A DNA stretch of 64,000 bases from an uncultured Gammaproteobacteria bacterium (lineage in GTDB: Bacteria; Patescibacteriota; Patescibacteriia; SG8-24; DYFX01), in assembly GCA_964400625.1 (NCBI GenBank), contig CAYNUS010000004.1, positions 26,164 to 90,163 of the forward strand, written 5' to 3'. Of the stretch, positions 13,905 through 24,277 are shown piece by piece (position 1 is the stretch's first letter; each line of letters starts with the position of its first letter). The notes under the pieces are model-generated. The model saw nothing but the letters and a program-made list of their open reading frames with translations, made no database searches and was not told where the DNA came from. A program made the position numbers and the translations under genes.

Positions 13905-13987
13905 GTCATTCCGAGCGCAGCCGAGGAACCCCTTGCGATTCATGGAGGAAAGGGGTTCCTCCGCTCGCTGCGCTCGGTCGGAATGAC
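13905..13987. repeat. palindromic intergenic element, copy 1 (MITE/REP-like, GTCATTCC...GGAATGAC)
   Basis: 83-bp near-perfect hairpin. The left arm GTCATTCCGAGCGCAGCCGAGGAACCCCTT pairs with the reverse complement of the right arm. Confidence 0.7.
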
Positions 13988-13996
13988 GGCACGTGG

Positions 13997-14674
13997 TCAT
14001 TTCCCTTCGACGGCGATGACGTATTCGCCTTTGATGGGTTCGGATCGGAGGAGTTCGGAAGCGTCCTTCATCTCGCCGTAGCGGACGGATTCGAACATCT
14101 TGGTGAGTTCGCGGCCGATGACGATCTTGCGGTGCGGGTCGCAGAGCGCGGAGAGTTCCGCCATCGCCTTCTCGACGCGATGCGGGCTCTCGAAGAAGAC
14201 GCTCGTGCGCTTCTCGTCGGCGATGATCTTCCAGTAGGTGTTCCTCCCCTTCTTGTGCGGCGGGAAGCCGTGGAAGACGTAGGCGTCGGCCGGGAAGCCG
14301 GAGACGGAAAGGAGCGTCGTGACGGCGGAGGGCCCGGGAATCGGCACGACCTTCACCTGGCCCTGCGAGACGCGCACGAGCTCGGCGACGAAGCGCGCGC
14401 CCGGGTCCGAGACGCCCGGCGTGCCGGCGTCGGAGATGAGCGCCATCGTCTCGCCTTGGTCGATGCGCTTCACGAGCGCCTGCAGCTTCCCCATCGAGGT
14501 GTGCTCGTGATAGCTCGTCGTCGCGGCGGGAACCTCGAAGTGGTTCAGGAGCTTCCGCGAGACGCGCGTGTCTTCGCATAGCACCAAGGATGACTCCATC
14601 AGCGCGGCGACGGCGCGGGGGGAGAAATCGTCGAGATTGCCGATGGGCGTGGCGATGACATACAGACGACTCAT
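13997..14674 (-). CDS. rsmI: 16S rRNA (cytidine1402-2'-O)-methyltransferase
   Basis: Starts LYVIATPIGNLDD and has the tetrapyrrole-methylase fold signature. Start chosen at MSRLYV. Confidence 0.85.
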   Translation of the reverse strand: MSRLYVIATPIGNLDDFSPRAVAALMESSLVLCEDTRVSRKLLNHFEVPAATTSYHEHTSMGKLQALVKRIDQGETMALISDAGTPGVSDPGARFVAELVRVSQGQVKVVPIPGPSAVTTLLSVSGFPADAYVFHGFPPHKKGRNTYWKIIADEKRTSVFFESPHRVEKAMAELSALCDPHRKIVIGRELTKMFESVRYGEMKDASELLRSEPIKGEYVIAVEGK

Positions 14675-14806
14675 ACCTTTTGCTGATCGCGCGAGCATGA
14701 TGAATGATGGCGTCCTTTCTCGTGCGGTCACCCCGGAATCGCGCAGCGATGTCCGGGGTGCTCATACGCGTCCAGCCTATAGAAAAACCCCCGAACCGTC
14801 GAGGGT

Positions 14807-15799
14807 TCAGGGGTAGACCGGGCGGAGCGCGGCGTGGAGCGCGAGTTTCGCGGCGTCCGGGGCGAAGGACATGTCGATGGAAGCGGCGACGAGCTTCACG
14901 AGGTCGCCTTCCTCCAGCTTCCAGGCTTCCTGGGCGAGGCCGAGCTCGCGGGCCATCGTGGTGTCCGCCAGCGTGCGGTTGTCGGTGTTGAGCCCGACCC
15001 GCAGGCCTTCCTTCAGATAGACCCAGGCCGGGTGCAGGTCGATCAGGCTGACGGTGCGCGTCTGCAGGTTGGAGGTGAGGCACGCTTCGATGCCGACGCC
15101 GCGCTTCGCCAGGAGCTCCAGCATGCGCGGGTCGCGGATGGCGTTCACGGCGTGGCCGACGCGTTCGGCGCCGAAGAGCTCGACGGCCTCGCGGATGCGC
15201 TCCGGCGGCCCGCTTTCGGCGGCGTGGATCGTGACATGGAGCCCGGCCTCGGCGGCGCGGCGGAAGTGCGGCGCGTGGTCGAGCGAGGGCAGCATGTCGT
15301 TCCCGGCCAGGTCGACCGCCACGACGCCGTTGCGGCGGTAGCGGATGGCGACGTCGATCATGCGTCCGGTGACGCTCGGGTCGACGTGGCGGAGGCTGCA
15401 GACGATGAAGCCCCAGCCGACGCCGTGCCGCATGCCGCCGATCGTCATCCCCTCCAGGATCGCCTCGACGACCTCCTCGTCGGAGAGCCCGCCGAGCGTG
15501 CTGAGCCGCGGCATGTAGCGCGCCTCGACGTACTTCAGGCCGTCGGCGGCGCAGTCTTCGATCAGCTCGATGGCGACGCGCGTGAGCGCGGAGCGGGACT
15601 GCAGGACGGCCGTGGTGTGGTCGAAGTGTTCCAGATACTGCGGCAGGCTCGCGCGGACCTCGCCGCAGGCGAGCGCCTTGCGGAGGCCGGATTCGGTCCT
15701 GGCGGGCAGGACGGTGTTCTCGGCCTCGGCGATCTCGAGCATGGTCGCGATCCGCAGCGAGCCGTCCAGATGGAGATGGAGTTCGACGAGCGGTTCCAA
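14807..15799 (-). CDS. add: adenosine deaminase
   Basis: 330 aa with the LHLHLDGSL metal-binding motif and C-terminal SNLQTRTV region. Confidence 0.85.
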   Translation of the reverse strand: MEPLVELHLHLDGSLRIATMLEIAEAENTVLPARTESGLRKALACGEVRASLPQYLEHFDHTTAVLQSRSALTRVAIELIEDCAADGLKYVEARYMPRLSTLGGLSDEEVVEAILEGMTIGGMRHGVGWGFIVCSLRHVDPSVTGRMIDVAIRYRRNGVVAVDLAGNDMLPSLDHAPHFRRAAEAGLHVTIHAAESGPPERIREAVELFGAERVGHAVNAIRDPRMLELLAKRGVGIEACLTSNLQTRTVSLIDLHPAWVYLKEGLRVGLNTDNRTLADTTMARELGLAQEAWKLEEGDLVKLVAASIDMSFAPDAAKLALHAALRPVYP

Positions 15800-15832
15800 A
15801 GAAGCCTCCCTTGCAATGTGCTGCAGAGGAGG

Positions 15833-16993
15833 CTACCAGTTCACGGCGTCGATGTCGATGCGTTCCTCATCCTTCATCACGGCCTCGATCCATTTCTGCA
15901 CGTCCAGCTTCTTCTCGTCCTCGGCGACGACGTCTTCGAACGCCTTGGTCGAAGGATGCTCCGGCATGAAGAGCGAACAGCAGTCGGAATGCGGCCGCGT
16001 GGAGATCTCGAAAGTGCCGATCTTGCGCGCGCGTTCGGTGATCTCGTCCTTGTCCATGCCGATGAGCGGTCGGAAGACGGGAAGCTTCGTGACCGCCTCG
16101 ACCGTGCGCATGTTCTGCACCGTCTGCGAGGCGACCTGCCCGAGCGATTCGCCCGTCACGAGCCCGCCGGCCTTCTCGCGGTGCGCGATGAGCTCCGCGA
16201 GGCGGAACATGAAGCGCCGGTAGTGGATGACGCGGAACTGCGGGTTGCAGACGGCGGCGATCTCCTCCTGCACGGGCGTGAGATTGATCATCGAGAGCGT
16301 CGCCTTGATGCCCGTGCGGTTCAGGACCGCGATCATGTCCTTCACGATCTCGATCGAGGCGCGGTCGGTGTACGGGAAGTTGTGGAAGTGGACGTAGTGC
16401 AGCGGCGCGCCGCGGCGGAGCATCATCCAGGACGCCACCGGCGAATCGATGCCGCCCGAAAGCAGCGAGACGAGCTTGCCGCCGCTTCCGAGCGGAAGCC
16501 CGCCGATGCCGCGGAGCTTCTCGTGCGCCACGTACGCGCCGTCGTCGGTGACCTCGATCCAGCAGGTGTGGTCGGCGTCCTTCATCTTCACCGTCAGCTC
16601 GGGGTTCGCTTTCAGGATGGCTTCGCCGACGAGCCCGGCGAGTTCCTGCGAGGTCATCGGGAAGCGCTTGTCGGGGCGCCGCGCCGTCACGCGGAAGGTC
16701 CCCTTCTGCGTCGTGAAGCGCGAGACGGCCTCCTTGATGATGGCGTCGACGTCCGGCACGACGCGGGCGCAGGGCAGGACATTGGCCACGCCGGCGACGT
16801 TCAGGAGGCGGCGCGTGACTTCCGGCGCCGAGGCGTCGTCGGCTTCGAGGCGGATGAGGCCCGTGCGGCGGCGGAGGCCCTTCACGCCCAGGCCCTTCAG
16901 CTGTTCGCGGATGTTCGAAACCAGCCGCGCCTCGAAGAGCGTGCGGTTCCTTCCCTTGATGCCGAGTTCCGCGTAGTGGACGACGAAGATCAT
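15833..16993 (-). CDS. thiI: tRNA 4-thiouridine(8) synthase
   Basis: THUMP and PP-loop (SGGIDS) domains. Start set at MIFVVHYAELGIKG. Confidence 0.85.
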   Translation of the reverse strand: MIFVVHYAELGIKGRNRTLFEARLVSNIREQLKGLGVKGLRRRTGLIRLEADDASAPEVTRRLLNVAGVANVLPCARVVPDVDAIIKEAVSRFTTQKGTFRVTARRPDKRFPMTSQELAGLVGEAILKANPELTVKMKDADHTCWIEVTDDGAYVAHEKLRGIGGLPLGSGGKLVSLLSGGIDSPVASWMMLRRGAPLHYVHFHNFPYTDRASIEIVKDMIAVLNRTGIKATLSMINLTPVQEEIAAVCNPQFRVIHYRRFMFRLAELIAHREKAGGLVTGESLGQVASQTVQNMRTVEAVTKLPVFRPLIGMDKDEITERARKIGTFEISTRPHSDCCSLFMPEHPSTKAFEDVVAEDEKKLDVQKWIEAVMKDEERIDIDAVNW

Positions 16994-17006
16994 TTGTCTT
17001 TCTTTT

Positions 17007-17096
17007 GTCATCCCGAGCCTGCGCATTTCGCGCGGGCGTCAGGGATCTCTTTAAAAAGCGATTCCTATCGCCCCGCACCGCGGGGCTCGGAATGAC
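17007..17096. repeat. palindromic intergenic element, copy 2
   Basis: GTCATCCCGAGC...GCTCGGAATGAC termini. Shares the internal AGGGATCYTTTTAAAAGCGATTCCTA block with copy 6. Confidence 0.7.
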
Positions 17097-17098
17097 AT

Positions 17099-18280
17099 TT
17101 AAGGCTTGCGGTGCTTCTTCAAGTACGCCTCCGCTTCGGAGGGACTGCCGACCTTACCCTTCGCTTGCGCATCAATCAAGAGGTCCAAGGCCTCGCCCAC
17201 GTCGGGGCCGGGTTTCAGCTTCAAAAGTTTCATGACCGTTTCGCCCGAAAGCAGGGGCTCCGCGCCCAGTTCCTTATAGAGGGCGACGTCCGCGCCCGAG
17301 GCCAGACGTCGGAGCAAGGTGGCGTCGACCCCGTGGCCGGAGGAGGCCAGGCGCAGGCGTTCGGCCAGGGCCACGGCGCCGTCGCGGCCGAGATGCGCGA
17401 AACACACGCCGACCTGGACGCGCGAGGGCACGGGCTTCCCGTCCAAGACGCGCAGGACGTCCGGGTCCTTCAATCGCGAGAGCGCTTTCCTGACCATGAG
17501 CGGCCAGCCGCCGCCGAGCGCGGGCGCAAGGGCTTCGACGGCGCCCGCGTCGGTCCAAAGTTCGGAGGCGCGGATCGGCGCGGCCTCGAGGCTCTTCACC
17601 AGCTCGCGCGAGACGAGTTCGTACGGCACGAGCCGTCCGTCGTGGCGCGTCTCGTTCACGTGCGCCATCGACGCGCGCAGGGCGTCCCACGTCGCCGCCT
17701 CGATGCCGAAGTCGAGCTGGACGGCGAACCGCAGCGCGCGGAGCATGCGCGTGTAGTCCTCCCGGAAGCGCGTCGCCGGATCGCCGACGGCGCGGATGAT
17801 CTTCTTCCCGAGGTCGTCCTGTCCGCCGAACGCGTCGATGAGCGCGCCTGTCGACGCCTCGCCCGCGGCACGTCGTTCGCGAACGACGTGCCAGGCCATC
17901 GCGTTGATCGTGAAGTCGCGGCGCGCTAGGTCTTCCTCGATGGGCATGTGCGGGTCGGCGCGCGTCGTCACGTCGCGGTAGCCGCCGGTGCCCGCGGGCT
18001 CCTCGCGGCGCGGGAGCGCGATGTCGAGACGGAGGCCGCCTTCGTCCGAGACGAACTTGAAGACGCCGAAGCTGCGGCCGACGAGATCGACGGAACCGCG
18101 CGCCTCGAGGAACTTCGCGAGCGCCACCGGTTCGACGCCGGCGACGAGGATATCGATGTCGCCCAGCGCGCGCCCGAGCAGCGCGTCGCGCACCGCGCCG
18201 CCGACCACGTACCAGCGCGAACCCGGAAGCTCTTCGCTCCAGCGCTTCAGGACGTCCGCGATCGGGTGGCCTTCGAACAT
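17099..18280 (-). CDS. cca: CCA tRNA nucleotidyltransferase / poly(A) polymerase family
   Basis: 393 aa with the GGAVRD...DID nucleotidyltransferase motif. Confidence 0.8.
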   Translation of the reverse strand: MFEGHPIADVLKRWSEELPGSRWYVVGGAVRDALLGRALGDIDILVAGVEPVALAKFLEARGSVDLVGRSFGVFKFVSDEGGLRLDIALPRREEPAGTGGYRDVTTRADPHMPIEEDLARRDFTINAMAWHVVRERRAAGEASTGALIDAFGGQDDLGKKIIRAVGDPATRFREDYTRMLRALRFAVQLDFGIEAATWDALRASMAHVNETRHDGRLVPYELVSRELVKSLEAAPIRASELWTDAGAVEALAPALGGGWPLMVRKALSRLKDPDVLRVLDGKPVPSRVQVGVCFAHLGRDGAVALAERLRLASSGHGVDATLLRRLASGADVALYKELGAEPLLSGETVMKLLKLKPGPDVGEALDLLIDAQAKGKVGSPSEAEAYLKKHRKP

Positions 18281-18312
18281 ATGCGGTCATGCTAACTGCC
18301 CCACCCGCTTTT

Positions 18313-18398
18313 GTCATCCTGAGCGGAGCGCAGCGGAGTCGAAGGATCCATCGGCTCGATATCCGGAGAATGGATCCCTCGGCTTCGCTCGGGATGAC
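18313..18398. repeat. palindromic intergenic element, copy 3
   Basis: GTCATCCTGAGCGGAGCGCAGCGGAG...CTCGGCTTCGCTCGGGATGAC. Confidence 0.65.
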
Positions 18399-18466
18399 GA
18401 AAACAGGAAAAGAAAAAACTCCGCCATGCTTTTTACGGAGCCCTTTCCTCCTTCGGTTTTCCGTCC

Positions 18467-18691
18467 CTACATCGCGGTCGCGTCGGCGACGGCGAGTTCG
18501 GTCGCGCCGCAGAGTCCGCATTCGATGCCGAGGTCTTCCTTGCGGATCTCGCCGCACGATTCGCAGAACAGCGCACCGTCCATCTCGTCGATCGAGGCGG
18601 AGCTGCAGCGCTCGCAGCGGTATGCGATATCCTTGCCGTTCAGTTCGCCGCAGTACGCGCAGGCGTACGACATTCCCATACGAAAGATCAC
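18467..18691 (-). CDS. zinc-ribbon domain small protein
   Basis: 74 aa with four CxxC pairs (CAYCGELNGKDIAYRCERC...CESCGEI...CGLCG). The first start may be one of the internal Mets. Confidence 0.5.
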   Translation of the reverse strand: MIFRMGMSYACAYCGELNGKDIAYRCERCSSASIDEMDGALFCESCGEIRKEDLGIECGLCGATELAVADATAM

Positions 18692-18787
18692 TCAAAGATT
18701 TTTAACCGTTGGGAGCATAGCATCAGCGTCCCCGCGGAACAAGCAAAAAAGATATCCACATTCGCACCCTTGCGCCGTTCGCCTTTT

Positions 18788-18817
18788 GTTCATCTATACT
18801 ATGAACGAAAGGCGAAC
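18788..18817 (+). promoter_or_regulatory. candidate LexA operator overlapping a TATACT -10 element
   Basis: Inverted repeat GTTCAT-N7-ATGAAC (18788-18806) overlaps GAAC-N7-GAAC (18803-18817). The latter is GTTC-N7-GTTC on the other strand, the alphaproteobacterial SOS-box type. Lies 21-50 nt upstream of the lexA ATG. Confidence 0.4.
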
Positions 18818-18837
18818 ACTTATTAACACCCCATTCT

Positions 18838-19440
18838 ATGTTCGAGCTCACGTCCAAACAGAAGGAGTTGCTGGATGCCATCCAGGAACACGTCGGCGAC
18901 CGCGGCGTCATGCCCAGTTACCGCGAACTGGCCGTCGCCATGGGCGCGTCCAGCCCGGCCACGATCCATAAGCACGTGACCCTGCTCGAAAAGAAAGGGT
19001 ACGTCATGCGCCACGACGGCGGACGCTCGCTCTCCCTCACCCCGAAGGCCACCACGCGCCGCCCGGCCATCGGTCTCCCGCTCCGCGGCCTCATCACCGC
19101 CGGCCTCCCCATCGAGGCCATCGAGACGAACGACACGATCGACGTCCCGGCCGACATGGTCGTCGACGAGATCAACTCCTACGTCCTCAAGGTGAAGGGC
19201 GAATCGATGATCGACGACGGCATCTTGGACGGCGACTTCGTCATCGTCGAGCGCAACCCCTCGCCGAAGAACGGCGACATCGTCGTCGCGCTCCTCGAGA
19301 ACACCTACGCCACGCTCAAGCGCTTCTACCGCGAATCCACCCGCATCCGCCTCCAGCCCGCCAACTCCACGATGCAGCCGTTCTACGTGCAGGATCCGCT
19401 GATCCAGGGCGTCGTGCGGGCGGTGCTGAGGAAGTACTGA
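18838..19440 (+). CDS. lexA: LexA repressor
   Basis: 200 aa with an N-terminal winged HTH and a C-terminal S24 peptidase domain (catalytic Ser in GESM, Lys in TLKRF). Confidence 0.9.
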   Translation: MFELTSKQKELLDAIQEHVGDRGVMPSYRELAVAMGASSPATIHKHVTLLEKKGYVMRHDGGRSLSLTPKATTRRPAIGLPLRGLITAGLPIEAIETNDTIDVPADMVVDEINSYVLKVKGESMIDDGILDGDFVIVERNPSPKNGDIVVALLENTYATLKRFYRESTRIRLQPANSTMQPFYVQDPLIQGVVRAVLRKY

Positions 19441-19459
19441 GGCGACAGCGCTTTTACAT

Positions 19460-19553
19460 GTCATTCCTGCGCAGGCAGGAATCCAGTACCGAAACACAGA
19501 CATCAAATGTTTAGCTGCTCGTGGAACTGGGTTCCAGCTTTCGCTGGAATGAC
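19460..19553. repeat. palindromic intergenic element, copy 4
   Basis: TGTCATTCCTGCGCAGGCAGGAATCC...GGTTCCAGCTTTCGCTGGAATGACA. Confidence 0.65.
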
Positions 19554-19753
19554 ATGACAAGAAACCATAACCCATCTTTTATGAGCAGGAGGAAGTTCAA
19601 ATCGATGTATCGCCAGCTGGTCGGGCACGTCGTGGATTGGTTCGAAATCGCGGAATATGAGGAGAAAGTGGATTCCCTCGCGTCGTAGACGTTCTTGGGA
19701 GGGGTTTGCTATGCTTGAACCCGTCCCTAACGCACACGTACGCACCGTCTTTT

Positions 19754-20359
19754 ATGTCAGAACTGCAAGTCAAACCCCTCAAGTATAAGGAACTGCCCGG
19801 ATTGTCCGAGAAGCAGCTTTCGGAGCACCACGACGTGCTCTACGCCGGCTACGTCAAGAAGACCAACGAGATCCGCGGCAAGCTCGCCACGGTCTCCCTG
19901 GAGGGCGTGAACGCCACGCACAGCGATCTCCGCGAGCTCAAGCTCGAGGAGACGTTCGCGTTGAACGGCGTGAAGCTCCATGAGCGCTATTTCGACAACC
20001 TCGGCGGCAAGGGCGGCGCGCCCGAAGGCGTCGCGGCCGACTGGATCATGGAAGACTTCGGCTCCTACGAGAAGTGGCAGGCCGAATTTTCCGCCTGCGG
20101 CATGGCCGCGCGCGGCTGGGTCGTGCTGGCCTTCGACCTCGAGGAGAAGCGCCTCATGAACGTCGTCTGCGACGTCCACAACCAGGGCGGCGTCTGGGGC
20201 CAGGTCCCGCTCCTCGTCCTCGACGTCTACGAGCACGCCTACTTCCTCGACTACGCCACCGCCCGCAAGAAGTACCTGGAGACCTTCACCCAGAACGTCG
20301 ACTGGTCCGCCGTGAACGCGCAAATCGAGAAGTTTGACCTCGCGAAGTACCGAAGTTAA
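19754..20359 (+). CDS. Fe/Mn family superoxide dismutase
   Basis: 201 aa from the ATG. Has the conserved His pair near the N-terminus and C-terminal DVYEHAYFLDY (SOD signature DxWEHAYY-like). A TTG at 19706 is an alternative start. Confidence 0.75.
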   Translation: MSELQVKPLKYKELPGLSEKQLSEHHDVLYAGYVKKTNEIRGKLATVSLEGVNATHSDLRELKLEETFALNGVKLHERYFDNLGGKGGAPEGVAADWIMEDFGSYEKWQAEFSACGMAARGWVVLAFDLEEKRLMNVVCDVHNQGGVWGQVPLLVLDVYEHAYFLDYATARKKYLETFTQNVDWSAVNAQIEKFDLAKYRS

Positions 20360-20410
20360 GATGAAGCCTCGCCTCCACGGCGAGGCTTCTGCCATTAACC
20401 GCATCCATCT

Positions 20411-20923
20411 ATGACGTTCATCGGCCAGAAGGCGCCGGAGTTCAAGCTCCAGGGCGTCTCCCACGAGACGTTCGAGCACCACGCGCTCTCCGACTACAAG
20501 GGCAAGTGGGTCGTCCTGTTCTTCTACCCGCGCGACTTCACCTTCATCTGCCCCACCGAGATCACCGGCTACTCCAAGGCGGACGACGCCTTCAAGAAGC
20601 TGAACGCCCAGGTGCTCGGCGTCTCCACCGACTCCGCCTGGTCCCACAAGGCGTGGCTCAAGGAGCTCGGCGCCCTCAAGTACCCGCTCTTGGCCGACGT
20701 CACCCAGAAGGTCTCCGCCGCCTACGGCGTGCTCGACGAGACCGAAGGCGAAGCCATCCGCGGCACCTTCATCATCGATCCCGAAGGCACCGTGAAGTAC
20801 GCCCTCTACCACGACAACAACGTCGGCCGCTCCGTGAAGGAGACCCTCCGCGTCCTGGAGGCGCTCCAGACGGGCGAGAAGTGCCCGGTGGAGTGGAATC
20901 CGGGTGAGAAGACGTTGGGGTAA
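20411..20923 (+). CDS. peroxiredoxin (AhpC/Prx1 type)
   Basis: 170 aa with FTFICPTE peroxidatic Cys motif and a resolving Cys near the C-terminus (EKCPVEW). Confidence 0.85.
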   Translation: MTFIGQKAPEFKLQGVSHETFEHHALSDYKGKWVVLFFYPRDFTFICPTEITGYSKADDAFKKLNAQVLGVSTDSAWSHKAWLKELGALKYPLLADVTQKVSAAYGVLDETEGEAIRGTFIIDPEGTVKYALYHDNNVGRSVKETLRVLEALQTGEKCPVEWNPGEKTLG

Positions 20924-20932
20924 GAGAGAACG

Positions 20933-20959
20933 AAAAACCGGCCTTGCGGCCGGTTTTTT
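20933..20959. terminator. bidirectional Rho-independent terminator
   Basis: AAAAACCGGCC-ttgc-GGCCGGTTTTTT, between the convergent genes. Confidence 0.6.
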
Positions 20960-21320
20960 AGTGTCTCGGACTTTGCACGTTTTTATATTTTGGACCATCG
21001 TCCCGTTTCGGAACTTTCACATAGTCGCGAGGTGATTTCACCGGCCTGATAGCTGGAGCGCTCTTATGCTCTACTGGACGGCCACGAACGACTTTCATAG
21101 TAGATACTCCACCACGAAAAGTTGAAGCGGTTATTTTGGGTCCAACGTGGCGAATTCTTTTTTTGCGCAGTTTCGTACGAACCTCGCAGTTTACTGAACA
21201 AAAATTGCTGGGAAAGGCTGCGAATTTCCCGCATCCATTGCATCCCCGATTCCGGTTGCCATTCGTACGCTTCGCAACCGAGGGTCGCGGCAAATAAATA
21301 TACGAGATCTTTTTCGACAT
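20958..21320 (-). CDS. hypothetical basic Cys-rich protein in a low-GC (about 47%) segment
   Basis: 120-aa ORF 3 nt downstream of pepA. Contains CNGCGK...CSVNC (a possible zinc ribbon) and is very Lys/Arg rich. GC is far below the surrounding 68%. Confidence 0.45.
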   Translation of the reverse strand: MSKKISYIYLPRPSVAKRTNGNRNRGCNGCGKFAAFPSNFCSVNCEVRTKLRKKRIRHVGPKITASTFRGGVSTMKVVRGRPVEHKSAPAIRPVKSPRDYVKVPKRDDGPKYKNVQSPRH

Positions 21321-21322
21321 AG

Positions 21323-22816
21323 TTACACCCTCCTCAAAAACTCAAGTAGCAACCTCGCCCCATACCCGCTCGCCCCCCACGGCCGCTCGTCCTGATAGTC
21401 CTTCTCGTTGTAGGACGGCCCCGCGATGTCGAGGTGGGCCCAGCTGGGGGTTTCGCCGATGAATTCCTTGAGGAACAGTCCGGCGGTGATGGTGCCGGCG
21501 CCGCCTTTGCTGCCGATGTTCTTGAGGTCGGCGTGGCGGCTCTTCACCTGCTCGGCGTAGGGCGCGTAGAGCGGGAGCCTCCAGAGCGGCTCGCCCGAGG
21601 TCGCGGAGGCCTGTTCGAGGCGCGCGGCGAGCTTGTCGTCGTCGGTGAGCATGCCGGTGATGTCCTGTCCGAGCGCGACGATGCAGGCGCCGGTGAGCGT
21701 CGCCAGGTCGATCATCATGTCGGGCTTGAGCTGGGAACCGTAGAAGAGCGTGTCAGCGAGCGTCACGCGGCCTTCGGCGTCGGTGTTCAGGATCTCGATG
21801 GTCTTGCCAGACATCGTCTTCACTATGTCGCCGGGGCGGATAGCGTGGCCCGACGGCATGTTCTCGACCATGGCGCAGATGCCGTGGACCTCGACGGGGA
21901 TCTTCAGCGCGGTGAGCGCCCGGAAGACAGCCAGCACGGCTGCGGCACCCGCCATATCGATCTTCATGTCCATCATCCCGTCGGCGGGCTTGAGCGAAAG
22001 GCCGCCCGAATCGAACGTCACGCCCTTTCCGACCAAGACGACGCGCTTCTTCGCCTTCACGGCGGGTTTGTAGGCGAGGTGGATCATCTTCGGCTCGTGC
22101 GCGGAACCTTGCGCCACGGCCAAGACGCCGCCGGCGCCCATCTCCTGGAGCTCCTTGCGGCCGAAGATCTTGATGGTCATGCGCTTCTGTCCCACGGCCA
22201 GCGCGATGGCTTCCTGCACGAAGGTGGCAGGGTGCATCTCGAGCGCCGGGGTGTTCACGAGGTTCCGCGCGTACGCGGAAGCGCCGGCGAAGGCCTGGGC
22301 GTCGGCCACGGCCTTGTCGAAGAACTTGGCGTTGATGGCGAGCGCCGTGAGCAGCGCGACCTCTTCCAACGGCTTGGCCTTCTTGTCCTCCTTATAGCGG
22401 TCGTAGCGGTACGCGCCGAGGATGAGGCCCTCCGCGGCCGCCTGGATGGCCTCGCCGACCTTCGGGCTGGCCTTCTCGAACGGCAGCCAGAGTGCCAGCG
22501 TCGCGGCCTTGTTGGCGCCGGCCAGCTTCGCCGCGCGCGCCGTGGCGCTCCGCAGGCGCTTCAGATCGAACCCTTTCCGCTCGCCGAGGCCGAGGAGCGC
22601 CAGCTTGCGGTACGGCAGCTTGCCGTGGGTATGGATGACGAGCGTCGCTCCGACCGAGGCCTTGTACTCCTCTTCCTTCACATGGACCGAAAGATGCCCG
22701 CCCAGCGCGGCATCGAGCTTGGAGACCGGCGTGATCTCCGAACCTTCAAAGACGCCGACGATGAGGATTTCAGCTTTGGCTTCCTGAGGAAGCGCGGTGG
22801 AGCGGAGGATGCGCAT
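21323..22816 (-). CDS. pepA: leucyl aminopeptidase (M17)
   Basis: 497 aa with NTDAEGRL signature and metal ligands. Confidence 0.9.
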   Translation of the reverse strand: MRILRSTALPQEAKAEILIVGVFEGSEITPVSKLDAALGGHLSVHVKEEEYKASVGATLVIHTHGKLPYRKLALLGLGERKGFDLKRLRSATARAAKLAGANKAATLALWLPFEKASPKVGEAIQAAAEGLILGAYRYDRYKEDKKAKPLEEVALLTALAINAKFFDKAVADAQAFAGASAYARNLVNTPALEMHPATFVQEAIALAVGQKRMTIKIFGRKELQEMGAGGVLAVAQGSAHEPKMIHLAYKPAVKAKKRVVLVGKGVTFDSGGLSLKPADGMMDMKIDMAGAAAVLAVFRALTALKIPVEVHGICAMVENMPSGHAIRPGDIVKTMSGKTIEILNTDAEGRVTLADTLFYGSQLKPDMMIDLATLTGACIVALGQDITGMLTDDDKLAARLEQASATSGEPLWRLPLYAPYAEQVKSRHADLKNIGSKGGAGTITAGLFLKEFIGETPSWAHLDIAGPSYNEKDYQDERPWGASGYGARLLLEFLRRV

Positions 22817-22882
22817 ATGCGAAATGAGGTGACTTCAGAGCCACCTTAGTGCCGATTCATGGCGCGGTCAATCCAAAAACAT

Positions 22883-22974
22883 GTCACCCCTGCGAAAGCA
22901 GGGGCCCATTTCCTTCAGCGACTTTTGAAGGTTTCCGCTGGGGAAATGGGTCCCGGGTCTCCGCCCGGGATGAC
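22883..22974. repeat. palindromic intergenic element, copy 5
   Basis: GTCACCCCTGCGAAAGCAGGGGCCCATTTCC...GGAAATGGGTCCCGGGTCTCCGCCCGGGATGAC. Confidence 0.65.
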
Positions 22975-22975
22975 A

Positions 22976-23275
22976 TTAAAGAGCGCCCTCCTTCTTCAAC
23001 AGCGCCAGCTTCTTCTTCGGCCCTCCGAACGCGTAATCCCCCACTTTCCCGTCGGCCCGGATGACGCGATGGCACGGCACGCGCTTCGTGTCGGTGTTGC
23101 GGCTCATGATGGTGCCGACGGCGCGGGCGGCGCCGGGGCGTCCGGCGGCCTTGGCGACCTCCCCGTAGGTGCGTGTCTCGCCGCGCGGGATCTTCGCCAC
23201 GACGGCGTAGACCTTACGCGCGAACGGCGTGTCAGGCTCCGAGCGCCTTGAGGTCGGCGAGGACTTCTTCGGCAT
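22976..23275 (-). CDS. methylated-DNA-[protein]-cysteine S-methyltransferase, DNA-binding domain protein (MGMT family)
   Basis: C-terminal 83 aa carry the PCHRV active-site motif and the HTH (YGEVA). The start is uncertain because the upstream frame overlaps bcp. Confidence 0.6.
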   Translation of the reverse strand: MPKKSSPTSRRSEPDTPFARKVYAVVAKIPRGETRTYGEVAKAAGRPGAARAVGTIMSRNTDTKRVPCHRVIRADGKVGDYAFGGPKKKLALLKKEGAL

Positions 23276-23699
23276 GCTCTTTCGGTTTGACGCCTTCATA
23301 GATCTTGGCGATCTTCCCTTCCGGGTCGATGAGATACGAGTTACGCAGGATGCCCATGTATTCGCGGCCCATGAACTTCTTCTTGGCCCAGACGCCATAG
23401 GCGCCGAGCATCTCCTTCTTCTCGTCGGAGAGGAGCGTGAACGGCAGCTCGTACTTCTCGGCGAACTTGGCGTGCTTCTTCACGGGGTCAGCGCTCACGC
23501 CGAGCACGACCGCTTTCATCTTCTTGAACTTTGGAAAATTGTCGCGGAGCGTGCAGGCTTCGACCGTGCAGCCCGGCGTGTCGTCCTTGGGATAGAAGTA
23601 CAGCAGGACCCACTGGCCGAGGTAGTCCTTCAGGTCATGTTCCTTCCCGGCCTGGTCCGGCAGGCGGAATCCAGGGGCTTTCTGTCCGATCTTCAGCAT
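23232..23699 (-). CDS. bcp: thioredoxin-dependent thiol peroxidase (Bcp / PrxQ)
   Basis: MLKIGQKAPGF... with the PGCT peroxidatic Cys motif. About 155 aa. Confidence 0.85.
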   Translation of the reverse strand: MLKIGQKAPGFRLPDQAGKEHDLKDYLGQWVLLYFYPKDDTPGCTVEACTLRDNFPKFKKMKAVVLGVSADPVKKHAKFAEKYELPFTLLSDEKKEMLGAYGVWAKKKFMGREYMGILRNSYLIDPEGKIAKIYEGVKPKEHAEEVLADLKALGA

Positions 23700-23819
23700 A
23701 GAGATTCGTTTGGTGAGTATTCCACCCCGGCGGAGGCCGGGGACCACGCTAGTGGGGGTCCGAATCGTTGGGGGGTGGACCCCGTCCTTCGACGGGGTGG
23801 TTTATGATATCATAGCCCC

Positions 23820-24158
23820 ATGTCAGACACCCCTTTGATCGGACAAGTCTGCGTCTCGTGCCGCCCCGGCATGCCGACGCTCACGCAGGGCGAGATCGAC
23901 GCCTTCATGCCGCAGACCCCAGGGTGGGTCCTGTCGGACGACGGAAAGTGGATCCGCCGCGACTTCAAGTTCAAGAACTTCAAGGAGGCGCTCGACTTCC
24001 TGAACAAGGTCGGCGAGATCGCCGAAGCCGAGGGTCATCACCCGGACTACCGCGGCGGCTGGGGCAAGCTCACGCTCGAGCTCACGACCCACGCCATCCA
24101 CGGCCTCTCGAAGAACGACTTCATCCTCGCCGCGAAAACGAACGCCCTGCTCGGCTGA
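23820..24158 (+). CDS. pterin-4-alpha-carbinolamine dehydratase
   Basis: 112 aa with the EGHHPD motif characteristic of PCD/DCoH. Confidence 0.85.
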   Translation: MSDTPLIGQVCVSCRPGMPTLTQGEIDAFMPQTPGWVLSDDGKWIRRDFKFKNFKEALDFLNKVGEIAEAEGHHPDYRGGWGKLTLELTTHAIHGLSKNDFILAAKTNALLG

Positions 24159-24189
24159 GCAAGGCGTTTTTTCTTCGTTGATGCTTTTC

Positions 24190-24277
24190 GTCATCCCGAG
24201 CGAGGCATTCCAGCCGAGCGGTAGGGATCCTTTTTAAAAGCGATTCCTACCGCGCGCCTTCGCGCGCTCGGAATGAC
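24190..24277. repeat. palindromic intergenic element, copy 6
   Basis: GTCATCCCGAGCGAGG...GGTAGGGATCCTTTTTAAAAGCGATTCCTACC...GCGCTCGGAATGAC. The internal block is nearly identical to copy 2. Confidence 0.7.

Follow-up and report, generated by a model that had tools for sequence, protein, structure and literature searches.

Six clustered intergenic hairpins in a compact, Patescibacteria-labelled genome are probably inverted dimers of CGTC-tagged REP units

The stretch of DNA analysed here (the window) comprises 64,000 nucleotides of contig CAYNUS010000004.1 (assembly GCA_964400625.1, positions 26,164 to 90,163 of the forward strand), has a G+C content of 66% and carries, between its genes, six hairpin elements of 83-94 bp, which we number copies 1 to 6 in order of position. 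These elements are likely to be inverted, outward-tagged dimers of CGTC or TGTC repetitive extragenic palindromic (REP) units, that is, REPIN-like, non-coding selfish palindromes lodged in the small number of gene junctions where a compact genome tolerates them. The feature is real, well delimited and significantly clustered, and it is not a classical miniature inverted-repeat transposable element (MITE), a terminator family or an RNA gene known to Rfam. Palindromes of this kind have been known since 2013 and earlier, as dRS3 and the Rickettsia palindromic elements (RPE); what is new is the host and, for the most part, a variant type of unit.

A previous examination of the letters alone (the sequence-only reading) had reported six intergenic hairpins of this size, and all were found where it had placed them, with RNA-folding z-scores from -4.7 to -6.7 (Table 1) and none of 200 dinucleotide shuffles per element matching the real folding energy. 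A strict scan of the window for GTCA...TGAC pairs separated by 50-130 nt, in which 10 or more of the 12 terminal bases are complementary, recovered five of the six elements and nothing else (shuffled windows averaged 0.4), copy 5, which begins GTCACCCC, being the one that escaped. The motif GTCATYCC occurs 17 times in the window as compared with 4.6 expected, and 10 of those occurrences are element termini. Searches for both types of unit described below, tolerating two to three mismatches, together with a window-wide scan for inverted repeats, found no extra copy outside 13.9-24.3 kb, in agreement with the claim that the other 54 kb hold none. Pairwise identity among the copies is only 64-79%, copies 2 and 6 being the closest, so that the hairpins are stable but their description as near-perfect was generous; from the same divergence we infer that the set is old or mixed in origin rather than the outcome of a recent burst. 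The sequence is confirmed by a separate Logan assembly (L001), which matches the window exactly over 20515-22904; it ends 22 nt into copy 5, which shows these hairpins breaking assemblies. Rfam gave no match to the elements at gathering thresholds, and at E<=1 only chance miRNA-hairpin matches and one to beta_tmRNA inside pepA. The latter lies at 22674-22847 on the + strand, where it overlaps the 5' end of the opposite-strand gene pepA. It scores 21.8 bits (gathering score 84; E = 0.0014) and is almost certainly fortuitous.

All six elements are built from two short hairpin units in inverted orientation, tags outward, separated by spacers of 8-42 nt. Read from either end, each unit presents an unpaired C/TGTC tag (CGTC in 5 and TGTC in 7 of the 12 units), a stem that opens with AT in 11 of the 12 (5L, the left unit of copy 5, opens with AC), a loop and a C-rich tail, which is CCA in six units, CCC or CCT in three, and CTC or CGC in the other three. 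The stem is of 8 bp in units 4L, 4R, 5L and 5R; the first three have loops of 4 nt (GCAG, GAAA and GAAA) and CCA tails, and 5R has a loop of 6 nt. The remaining eight units, those of copies 1, 2, 3 and 6, are here named type A and follow the consensus GTCAT-YCY-GA-GC-GNA-GC-GA-RGR-AT; their hairpins span 22-37 nt and consist of a 5-bp outer stem (ATYCY...RGRAY), then G.A/A.G, with a GC-closed GNA loop inside. Both arms of copy 1 read cGTC-ATTCC..GGAAC-CCC, the units of copy 3 read tGTC-ATCCT..AGGAT-CCA and cGTC-ATCCC..GGGAT-CCA, and copies 2 and 6 form a single type-A sub-family in which an extra G+C hairpin is inserted in the unit loops. The internal block noticed earlier in copies 2 and 6 is genuine, and corresponds to their two tails plus the 8-nt spacer. 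Terminal repeats had been thought common to the whole set; this holds for copies 1, 2, 3 and 6, which share 12 nt, but not for copies 4 and 5, which belong to another sub-family and share only GTCAYYCC.

This anatomy was set beside that of the CGTC-tagged REPs, as given in those parts of Di Nocera, De Gregorio & Rocco (2013; PMC3733652) that describe their structure, location and in-gene peptides. According to these sections, the unpaired tag is CGTC, often TGTC and also CCTC, the stem has 8-9 bp and is almost always AT-first, the loop has 4-5 nt and the tail is approximately CCA; the units mostly form inverted dimers with spacers of 20-100 bp, often structured, and they lie between unidirectional or convergent genes, with no associated transposase. 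CGTC-1 is there equated with Neisseria dRS3 and Rickettsia RPE-6, CGTC-3 is alphaproteobacterial, CGTC-4 corresponds to RPE-4, and the host range covered five phyla. In the window, the tag is present in 12 of 12 units, all six elements are tags-outward dimers, and the junctions are unidirectional in five cases and convergent in one (copy 6). Copies 4 and 5 also have the AT-first stem of 8-9 bp and the loop of 4-5 nt, apart from the loop of 5R and the AC of 5L. Units 4L, 4R and 5L fit the stem, loop and tail stated for CGTC-1 exactly, and the translated copies 4 and 5 read like the supplementary in-gene peptides of CGTC-1 (SFPRKRES, VIPAKAGI, LDSRFRGND) and CGTC-3 (VIPGLDPGIH), 5R giving VIPG.DPG; the published dimer peptides (SFLRKQES...LDSRFRGND) likewise have their tags outward. 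Judged by these sequence features, copies 4 and 5 are members of the CGTC REP superfamily. In contrast, the type-A tail is CT instead of CCA, copies 2 and 6 have their further loop hairpin, and the canonical 21-nt form of the unit equals an 8+5+8 hairpin in length but its 3' half CGAAGGAT is not complementary to ATCCTGAG. The peptides in the supplement of PMC3733652 include none of type A, and a literature search with 12-mers, 9-10-mers and type-A peptides returned only primer coincidences, the type-A sequence being printed in none of the papers searched. Type A, which has the tag, the AT-first stem and the dimer form in common with the CGTC REPs, is a variant unit, probably undescribed, which is set apart from CGTC-1 to -4 by the text and supplement peptides of that paper only, and the present host, labelled Patescibacteria, lies beyond the five phyla.

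Further copies had been proposed to be sought with the terminal 12-mers. When 185,579 species genomes were scanned for the type-A termini, GTCATYCYGAGC-N50-80-GCTCRGRATGAC, at least 120 stretches were found in genomes labelled, among the matches listed, as ~14 phyla, and the elements are clearly not unique to this locus. The labels among the matches listed are Acidobacteriota, Chloroflexota, Verrucomicrobiota, Kiritimatiellota, Planctomycetota, Gemmatimonadota, Nitrospirota, Bacteroidota, Alpha- and Gammaproteobacteria, Desulfobacterota, Actinomycetota, Bacillota, Omnitrophota, Abditibacteriota and Patescibacteria, and the isolates among them are Hymenobacter, Mucilaginibacter, Luteimonas, Reyranella and Bifidobacterium. 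Unit statistics were taken over 122 dimers (244 units) from these other genomes. The pattern itself fixes 12 nt; after these, identity extends to position 26 in 107 of the 244 units, and the sequence then becomes random. Among the 107 canonical units the pair formed by positions 6 and 22 is C-G in 63 and T-A in 37, that formed by positions 8 and 20 is T-A in 77 and C-G in 28, and less than 7% are unpaired at either; in 47 of the 122 dimers the two units differ from each other at these pairs. Stem pairs thus covary within the unit, indicating that the unit hairpin, and not only the long hairpin, is maintained. In the 122 dimers, GTC is preceded by T in 75% and by C in 16%, and the spacers differ in nearly every species and are clearly self-complementary in 20% only. 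Outside cellular genomes, 27 stretches were found between phage genes in 2.9 million viral contigs, and BLAST of the whole elements against plasmids gave two partial matches, both in Hymenobacter and neither annotated. An IMG/VR contig (L143, 3163-4230) has several type-A units in frame within a 355-aa open reading frame (ORF; ...APLRMTRTGCGASLRMTGEGRSRSAQDDRRGTGVRLAQDDRDGG...), judged terminase-like by eye, which recalls the Rickettsia palindromic elements inserted in coding sequence. Viral contigs L140, L141, L157 and L158 have in common a long ORF of ~1.1 kb, structural-looking and not transposase-like by eye, that is bracketed by two dimers.

Relatives with the same gene order were located through cca and ThiI (ThiI identity to the window 70-91%), and the states of the six junctions are given in Table 1. 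Filled, empty or remnant states were found at five of the six, including the empty sites that the sequence-only reading had suggested looking for (site 1 in L123, L130 and L134, for example); at site 5 the element is present only in the window. The overlapping or abutting genes seen at site 2 in most relatives look like the ancestral state. At site 4, the remnants in L122 and L138 are of the right end only, and L133, which has a dimer of another type, is the closest relative. The copy-2/6 sub-family is found at different junctions, namely sites 2 and 6 of the window, site 2 of L127 and site 4 of L133, and the site-2 copies of the window and L127 keep identical termini with interiors that are diverged yet paired. 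Copy 3 is inserted directly behind a conserved hairpin and T-tract that follow the 70-aa ORF. The elements have been inserted, have decayed and have been re-inserted at the same few junctions, on a timescale equivalent to 10-25% of protein divergence. Another repeat of ~100 bp, with hairpins CCCCTCTC-N5-GAGAGGGG and CCTCCCC-N5-GGGGAGG, is present in L130 (2100-2200, 3180-3290 and 4440-4540), where it occupies two junctions that are filled by CGTC dimers in the window, cca to thiI and small ORF to cca, so that such junctions seem to accept insertions from several repeat families in general.

The window has ~67 gene junctions in its 64 kb, mostly of <40 nt, and the six that are filled lie within a run of 12 (permutation P ~2e-4), which substantiates the clustering noticed at the outset. 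Several loci in other genomes have 3 to 9 units inside 8 kb, and clustering is therefore not special to this window. As had also been observed, every copy lies just outside a gene end, 1, 2, 9, 11, 19 or 68 nt after the upstream stop codon.

Table 1. Hairpin elements of the window, the units of copies 4 and 5, the states of the corresponding junctions in syntenic relatives, and neighbouring features.
Feature	Position in window	Strand	Placement or sequence	Folding energy (kcal/mol)	z-score	Junction and its state
Copy 1	13905..13987	none	9 nt past stop of rsmI-like methylase gene (-), 20 nt before metG ATG (-)	-47.2	-5.7	Site 1, rsmI to metG. Filled: window, L122. Empty (AAATGATATG): L123, L130, L134
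Copy 2	17007..17096	none	2 nt past cca stop (-), 13 nt before thiI ATG (-)	-52.3	-6.5	Site 2, cca to thiI. Filled: window, L122, L127. Genes overlap (ATGA) or abut (TGAATG): L123, L125, L131, L133, L135, L136, L137, L138
Copy 3	18313..18398	none	68 nt past stop of 70-aa zinc-ribbon ORF (-), 32 nt before cca start (-)	-44.0	-4.7	Site 3, 70-aa ORF to cca. Filled: window only. Empty: L122, L131, L133
Copy 4	19460..19553	none	19 nt past lexA stop (+), 27 nt before 35-aa ORF (+)	-44.1	-6.5	Site 4, lexA to 35-aa ORF. Filled: window (CGTC-1-type dimer), L133 (type-A dimer of copy-2/6 sub-family, few nt off). Remnants GAATGAC or CGATGAC: L122, L138. GTCAC(G)CTGAC: L128, L130. Empty: L131, L135, L136
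Copy 5	22883..22974	none	1 nt past ogt stop (-), 66 nt before pepA start (-)	-50.4	-5.8	Site 5, ogt to pepA. Filled: window only. PEBP gene and Y1 transposase gene instead: L122
Copy 6	24190..24277	none	11 nt past rlmI-like methyltransferase stop (-), 31 nt past pterin-4a-carbinolamine dehydratase stop (+)	-51.5	-6.7	Site 6, rlmI-like to pterin-4a dehydratase. Filled: window only. Empty: L122. Genes overlap: L135
Copy 4, left unit (4L), CGTC-1-type			tGTC-ATTCCTGC-GCAG-GCAGGAAT-CCA			
Copy 4, right unit (4R), CGTC-1-type			tGTC-ATTCCAGC-GAAA-GCTGGAAC-CCA			
Copy 5, left unit (5L), CGTC-1-like			tGTC-ACCCCTGC-GAAA-GCAGGGGC-CCA			
Copy 5, right unit (5R), CGTC-3-like			tGTC-ATCCCGGGC-GGAG-ACCCGGGAC-CCA			
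70-aa zinc-ribbon ORF	18467-18679	-	flanks lexA			
Putative LexA operator	18777-18817		GTTCGCCTTTTGTTCAT-N7-ATGAACGAAAGGCGAAC, 21 nt upstream of lexA start; core GTTC-N11-GAAC			
35-aa ORF	19581-19688	+	flanks lexA			
Bidirectional intrinsic terminator	20924-20967		AAAAACCGGCC-GCAA-GGCCGGTTTTT, between bcp and 120-aa ORF			

How the dimers move was approached through their flanks and the genes around them. The sequence-only reading had proposed looking for target-site duplications and for a cognate transposase; no consistent duplication turned up, nor any transposase in the window. Immediate duplications are absent from the 122 dimers at every k from 2 to 8 (k=4: 0; k=5: 1). Inverted repeats are enriched in the flanks (7-mers at 15 elements, 2.8 expected), indicating that many elements sit inside pre-existing palindromes, and direct repeats of 7-8 nt within 25 nt of the elements are in marginal excess (5 vs 2.3 and 3 vs 0.4). 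Pfam scans of the called genes, with four short or terminal ORFs left out, revealed no transposase or integrase in the window. In the other genomes, the genes between neighbouring dimers look, by their translated sequence and with no Pfam scan made, like ordinary metabolic and housekeeping genes, none of them transposase-like, and no insertion sequence with matching terminal repeats, as a parent would have, was present among ~1.2 Mb of fetched loci, no collection-wide search having been made. At the ogt-pepA junction of L122 (4811-6005), a PEBP-family gene is accompanied by an IS200-like Y1 transposase gene (PF01797), which has a hairpin of another kind, ATCAGATAC-N4-GTATCTGAT, on either side; the window has no such hairpins, and tblastn with this Y1 protein against it found no match.

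REPINs are reportedly GTAG-tagged REP doublets mobilised by RAYTs (REP-associated tyrosine transposases), as is said in the work of Bertels and Rainey and of Nunvar and colleagues. Like REPINs, the present elements join two inverted REP units into one hairpin of ~90 bp, show no target-site duplication, are intergenic and are non-autonomous; unlike them, they are tagged YGTC and not GTAG, the divergence among their copies far exceeds that of a typical REPIN population, and no RAYT flanked by YGTC units is known to us or was found in the window. They resemble the REPs and BIMEs of E. coli in forming hairpins after stop codons within operons, but that family is GTAG-3. In their unpaired tag, hairpin and dimer form, and in lacking target-site duplications, the elements are most like GTAG REPs and REPINs, and by that analogy their movement would depend on an enzyme acting in trans and recognising the tag and hairpin in single-stranded DNA, as RAYTs act on GTAG REPs; we give roughly even chances to such an enzyme, encoded elsewhere than in the window, being responsible. 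The ATCCTG of the unit bears a possible resemblance to the nic sites of MOBP relaxases.

Several observations weigh against reading the elements as CGTC REP dimers moved in this way. Eight of the 12 units, all of type A, depart from the stems of 8-9 bp and loops of 4-5 nt that characterise the four published CGTC families, and we know of no enzyme that mobilises CGTC REPs, the single-stranded, HUH-type mechanism being proposed by analogy only. Direct repeats of 5-6 nt accompany the element in three filled/empty comparisons (AAATGA on both sides of copy 1 at site 1 of the window, TAACC at site 4 of L133 and AACAT at site 1 of L122), which would suit cut-and-paste by a DDE transposase. The divergence among the copies gives no sign of movement in the present genome. 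The transcribed strand is no more stable in folding than its complement, so no selection at the RNA level is evident. Finally, the carriers are, among the matches listed, mostly metagenome-assembled genomes whose phylum labels may be binning errors, the isolates being confined to Bacteroidota, Pseudomonadota and Actinomycetota.

The three direct repeats lead to the best of the alternatives, namely that the elements are MITEs in the classical sense, derived from an insertion sequence by deletion and moved by a DDE transposase that binds their terminal inverted repeats and duplicates the target site. Terminal inverted repeats of 8-13 nt on elements of this length, and the marginal excess of 7-8 nt direct repeats, point the same way. 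Nevertheless, we consider it improbable: the 122 dimers are without immediate duplications, the three direct repeats lie away from the termini and are unequal in length, no transposase accompanies the elements in the window nor, by translation, between dimers elsewhere, and what is conserved folds on itself and carries an unpaired tag, as a REP does and a plain terminal repeat does not. Of the original description as MITE/REP-like, the second term survives, as a palindrome family of tagged inverted dimers showing turnover, and the first, in its classical sense, does not. Neisseria Correia elements and Coxiella QMITE1/2 (PMC5896051) are similarly small, bounded by terminal inverted repeats, intergenic and co-transcribed with their neighbours, but they have defined target-site duplications and conserved interiors, whereas here only the 25-nt terminal units are conserved. 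Integron attC sites were also considered and rejected, as the termini here are GTCAY...RTGAC and not RYYYAAC...GTTRRRY, the flanks are housekeeping genes in conserved synteny and the window has no integrase; CRISPR and uptake sequences were rejected on sequence and context.

A different possibility is that these are host regulatory hairpins, that is, terminators, attenuators or stabilisers of mRNA that are vertically inherited and kept for their function. Their RNA folds are very stable, all lie downstream of genes, four of the six within 15 nt of the stop codon, and the site-2 copies of the window and L127 retain pairing in spite of diverged interiors. We regard this explanation as very unlikely, however, for most close relatives lack the elements and have overlapping or abutting genes instead, sister lineages carry different types at one junction (site 4), and the 25-nt unit adjoins unrelated genes in many phyla. 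Nor was the suggestion that the elements act as terminators borne out: a U-tract behind a G+C-rich stem occurs only at the distal unit of copy 5 (one copy of six), and the hairpin and T-tract in front of copy 3 probably already end the upstream gene.

Selfish REP dimers may still affect the RNAs that contain them. Once inserted, they would almost certainly be co-transcribed in place with the operon mRNAs, and very stable hairpins would then form right behind stop codons, parting genes that overlapped or abutted in relatives. REPs of E. coli lying within 15 nt of a stop codon lower translation, and they have documented effects on mRNA stability as well (Liang et al. 2015, as cited in the relevant passage of PMC12306157); four of the six copies lie in this range. 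By analogy with those REPs, the hairpins may reduce the translation of the gene upstream or shield the 3' end of the mRNA.

It is extremely unlikely that the elements are primarily landing sites, recombination targets for IS110-type transposases or integrating phages in the manner of Neisseria dRS3 (CGTC-1). The equation of CGTC-1 with dRS3, and the remark that REPs serve insertion sequences as targets, are both present in the relevant parts of PMC3733652; a Y1 transposase gene does occupy the copy-5 junction of L122, and a decayed CGTC dimer of L122 (11184-11284) is interrupted by another repeat type, the ATCAGATAC-N4-GTATCTGAT motif being nested inside it. Against this, none of the six window copies is interrupted, the window has no IS110 or integrase gene, and the idea would explain the use of the elements rather than their origin or spread. 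We find it most unlikely, too, that they arose in place by template switching or hairpin-primed repair, with gene conversion between arms or copies and no dedicated enzyme. Interiors that are hypervariable yet self-complementary, and remnants such as GTCACGCTGAC that resemble products of hairpin deletion, would fit, and de novo formation is raised as a question in the discussion of PMC3733652; but such a process leaves unexplained both a near-invariant, tagged 25-nt unit across phyla and the presence of one sub-family at different junctions of related genomes.

Gene calls in the window rest on Pfam scans and on G+C at third codon positions. The order around the dimers is metG (-), copy 1, an rsmI-like methylase gene (-), an adenosine deaminase gene (-), thiI (-), copy 2, cca (-), copy 3, the 70-aa zinc-ribbon ORF (-), lexA (+), copy 4, the 35-aa ORF (+), sod (+), bcp (+), pepA (-), copy 5, ogt (-), bcp (-), the pterin-4a dehydratase gene (+), copy 6 and an rlmI-like methyltransferase gene (-). 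The 70-aa and 35-aa ORFs have 93-99% identity in all relatives, and neither matches a Pfam family above threshold; the former encodes a zinc-ribbon with four cysteine pairs and the latter a peptide starting MSRRKFKSMYRQLVGHVVDWFEIAEYEE..., and their position on either side of lexA suggests that they are part of the SOS regulon. The near-perfect palindrome listed in Table 1 lies in the divergent region common to lexA and the 70-aa ORF and is, from its sequence, plausibly a LexA operator of unusual form. The clean terminator between bcp and the 120-aa ORF exemplifies the form that genuine terminators take in this genome. The outward ends of the elements, ...ATGACA, resemble a -35 hexamer, and that of copy 3 (18289-18317, - strand) lies 17 nt from a TAGCAT just upstream of cca, with 9 of 12 matches to the consensus. 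The ATGAC ends also provide ATG codons that create spurious ORFs, such as 23823-24194 (-).

The host is taken, on the word of the submitters, to be a high-G+C lineage labelled Patescibacteria: NCBI submitters have labelled the ThiI homologues of 70-89% identity 'Patescibacteria group bacterium', with one 2.3-kb contig binned as Candidatus Baltobacteraceae, and L135 is a complete genome of 1,167,441 bp (CP129476.1) that is syntenic with the window. The window encodes an F-type ATP synthase, a class I ribonucleotide reductase, SOD, two Bcp peroxiredoxins, MsrA, RecQ, a GSDH/lysyl-oxidase fusion and a glutathione S-transferase. This repertoire is unusually oxygen-oriented for a group labelled Patescibacteria, and the taxonomic label deserves checking.

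In practice, hairpins of this kind break short-read assemblies, and their ATGAC ends seed spurious ORFs through start codons, so that masking is advised for annotators. The translations of this DNA contain peptides of the SSRAK..., ...LRSG and ...GMT type, and such peptides are common in database annotations. For the organism, the finding means that a very compact genome tolerates what are probably selfish palindromes exactly where genes formerly overlapped, uncoupling them. For the family, it extends CGTC REPs well past the five phyla of 2013. The question of the mobiliser has stood since that year, and the invariance of the unit across phyla, together with its presence in ~1.2-Mb genomes, narrows the search. 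It is possible, if rather doubtful, that the type-A unit, YGTC-ATYCY-GA-GC-GNA-GC-GA-RGRAT-CT, constitutes an undescribed fifth CGTC REP family, near-invariant across ~14 phyla among the matches listed and still turning over in ~1.2-Mb genomes, which would imply a single conserved or horizontally travelling enzyme; should this be true, a gene repertoire of ~1.2 Mb would shorten the list of candidates.

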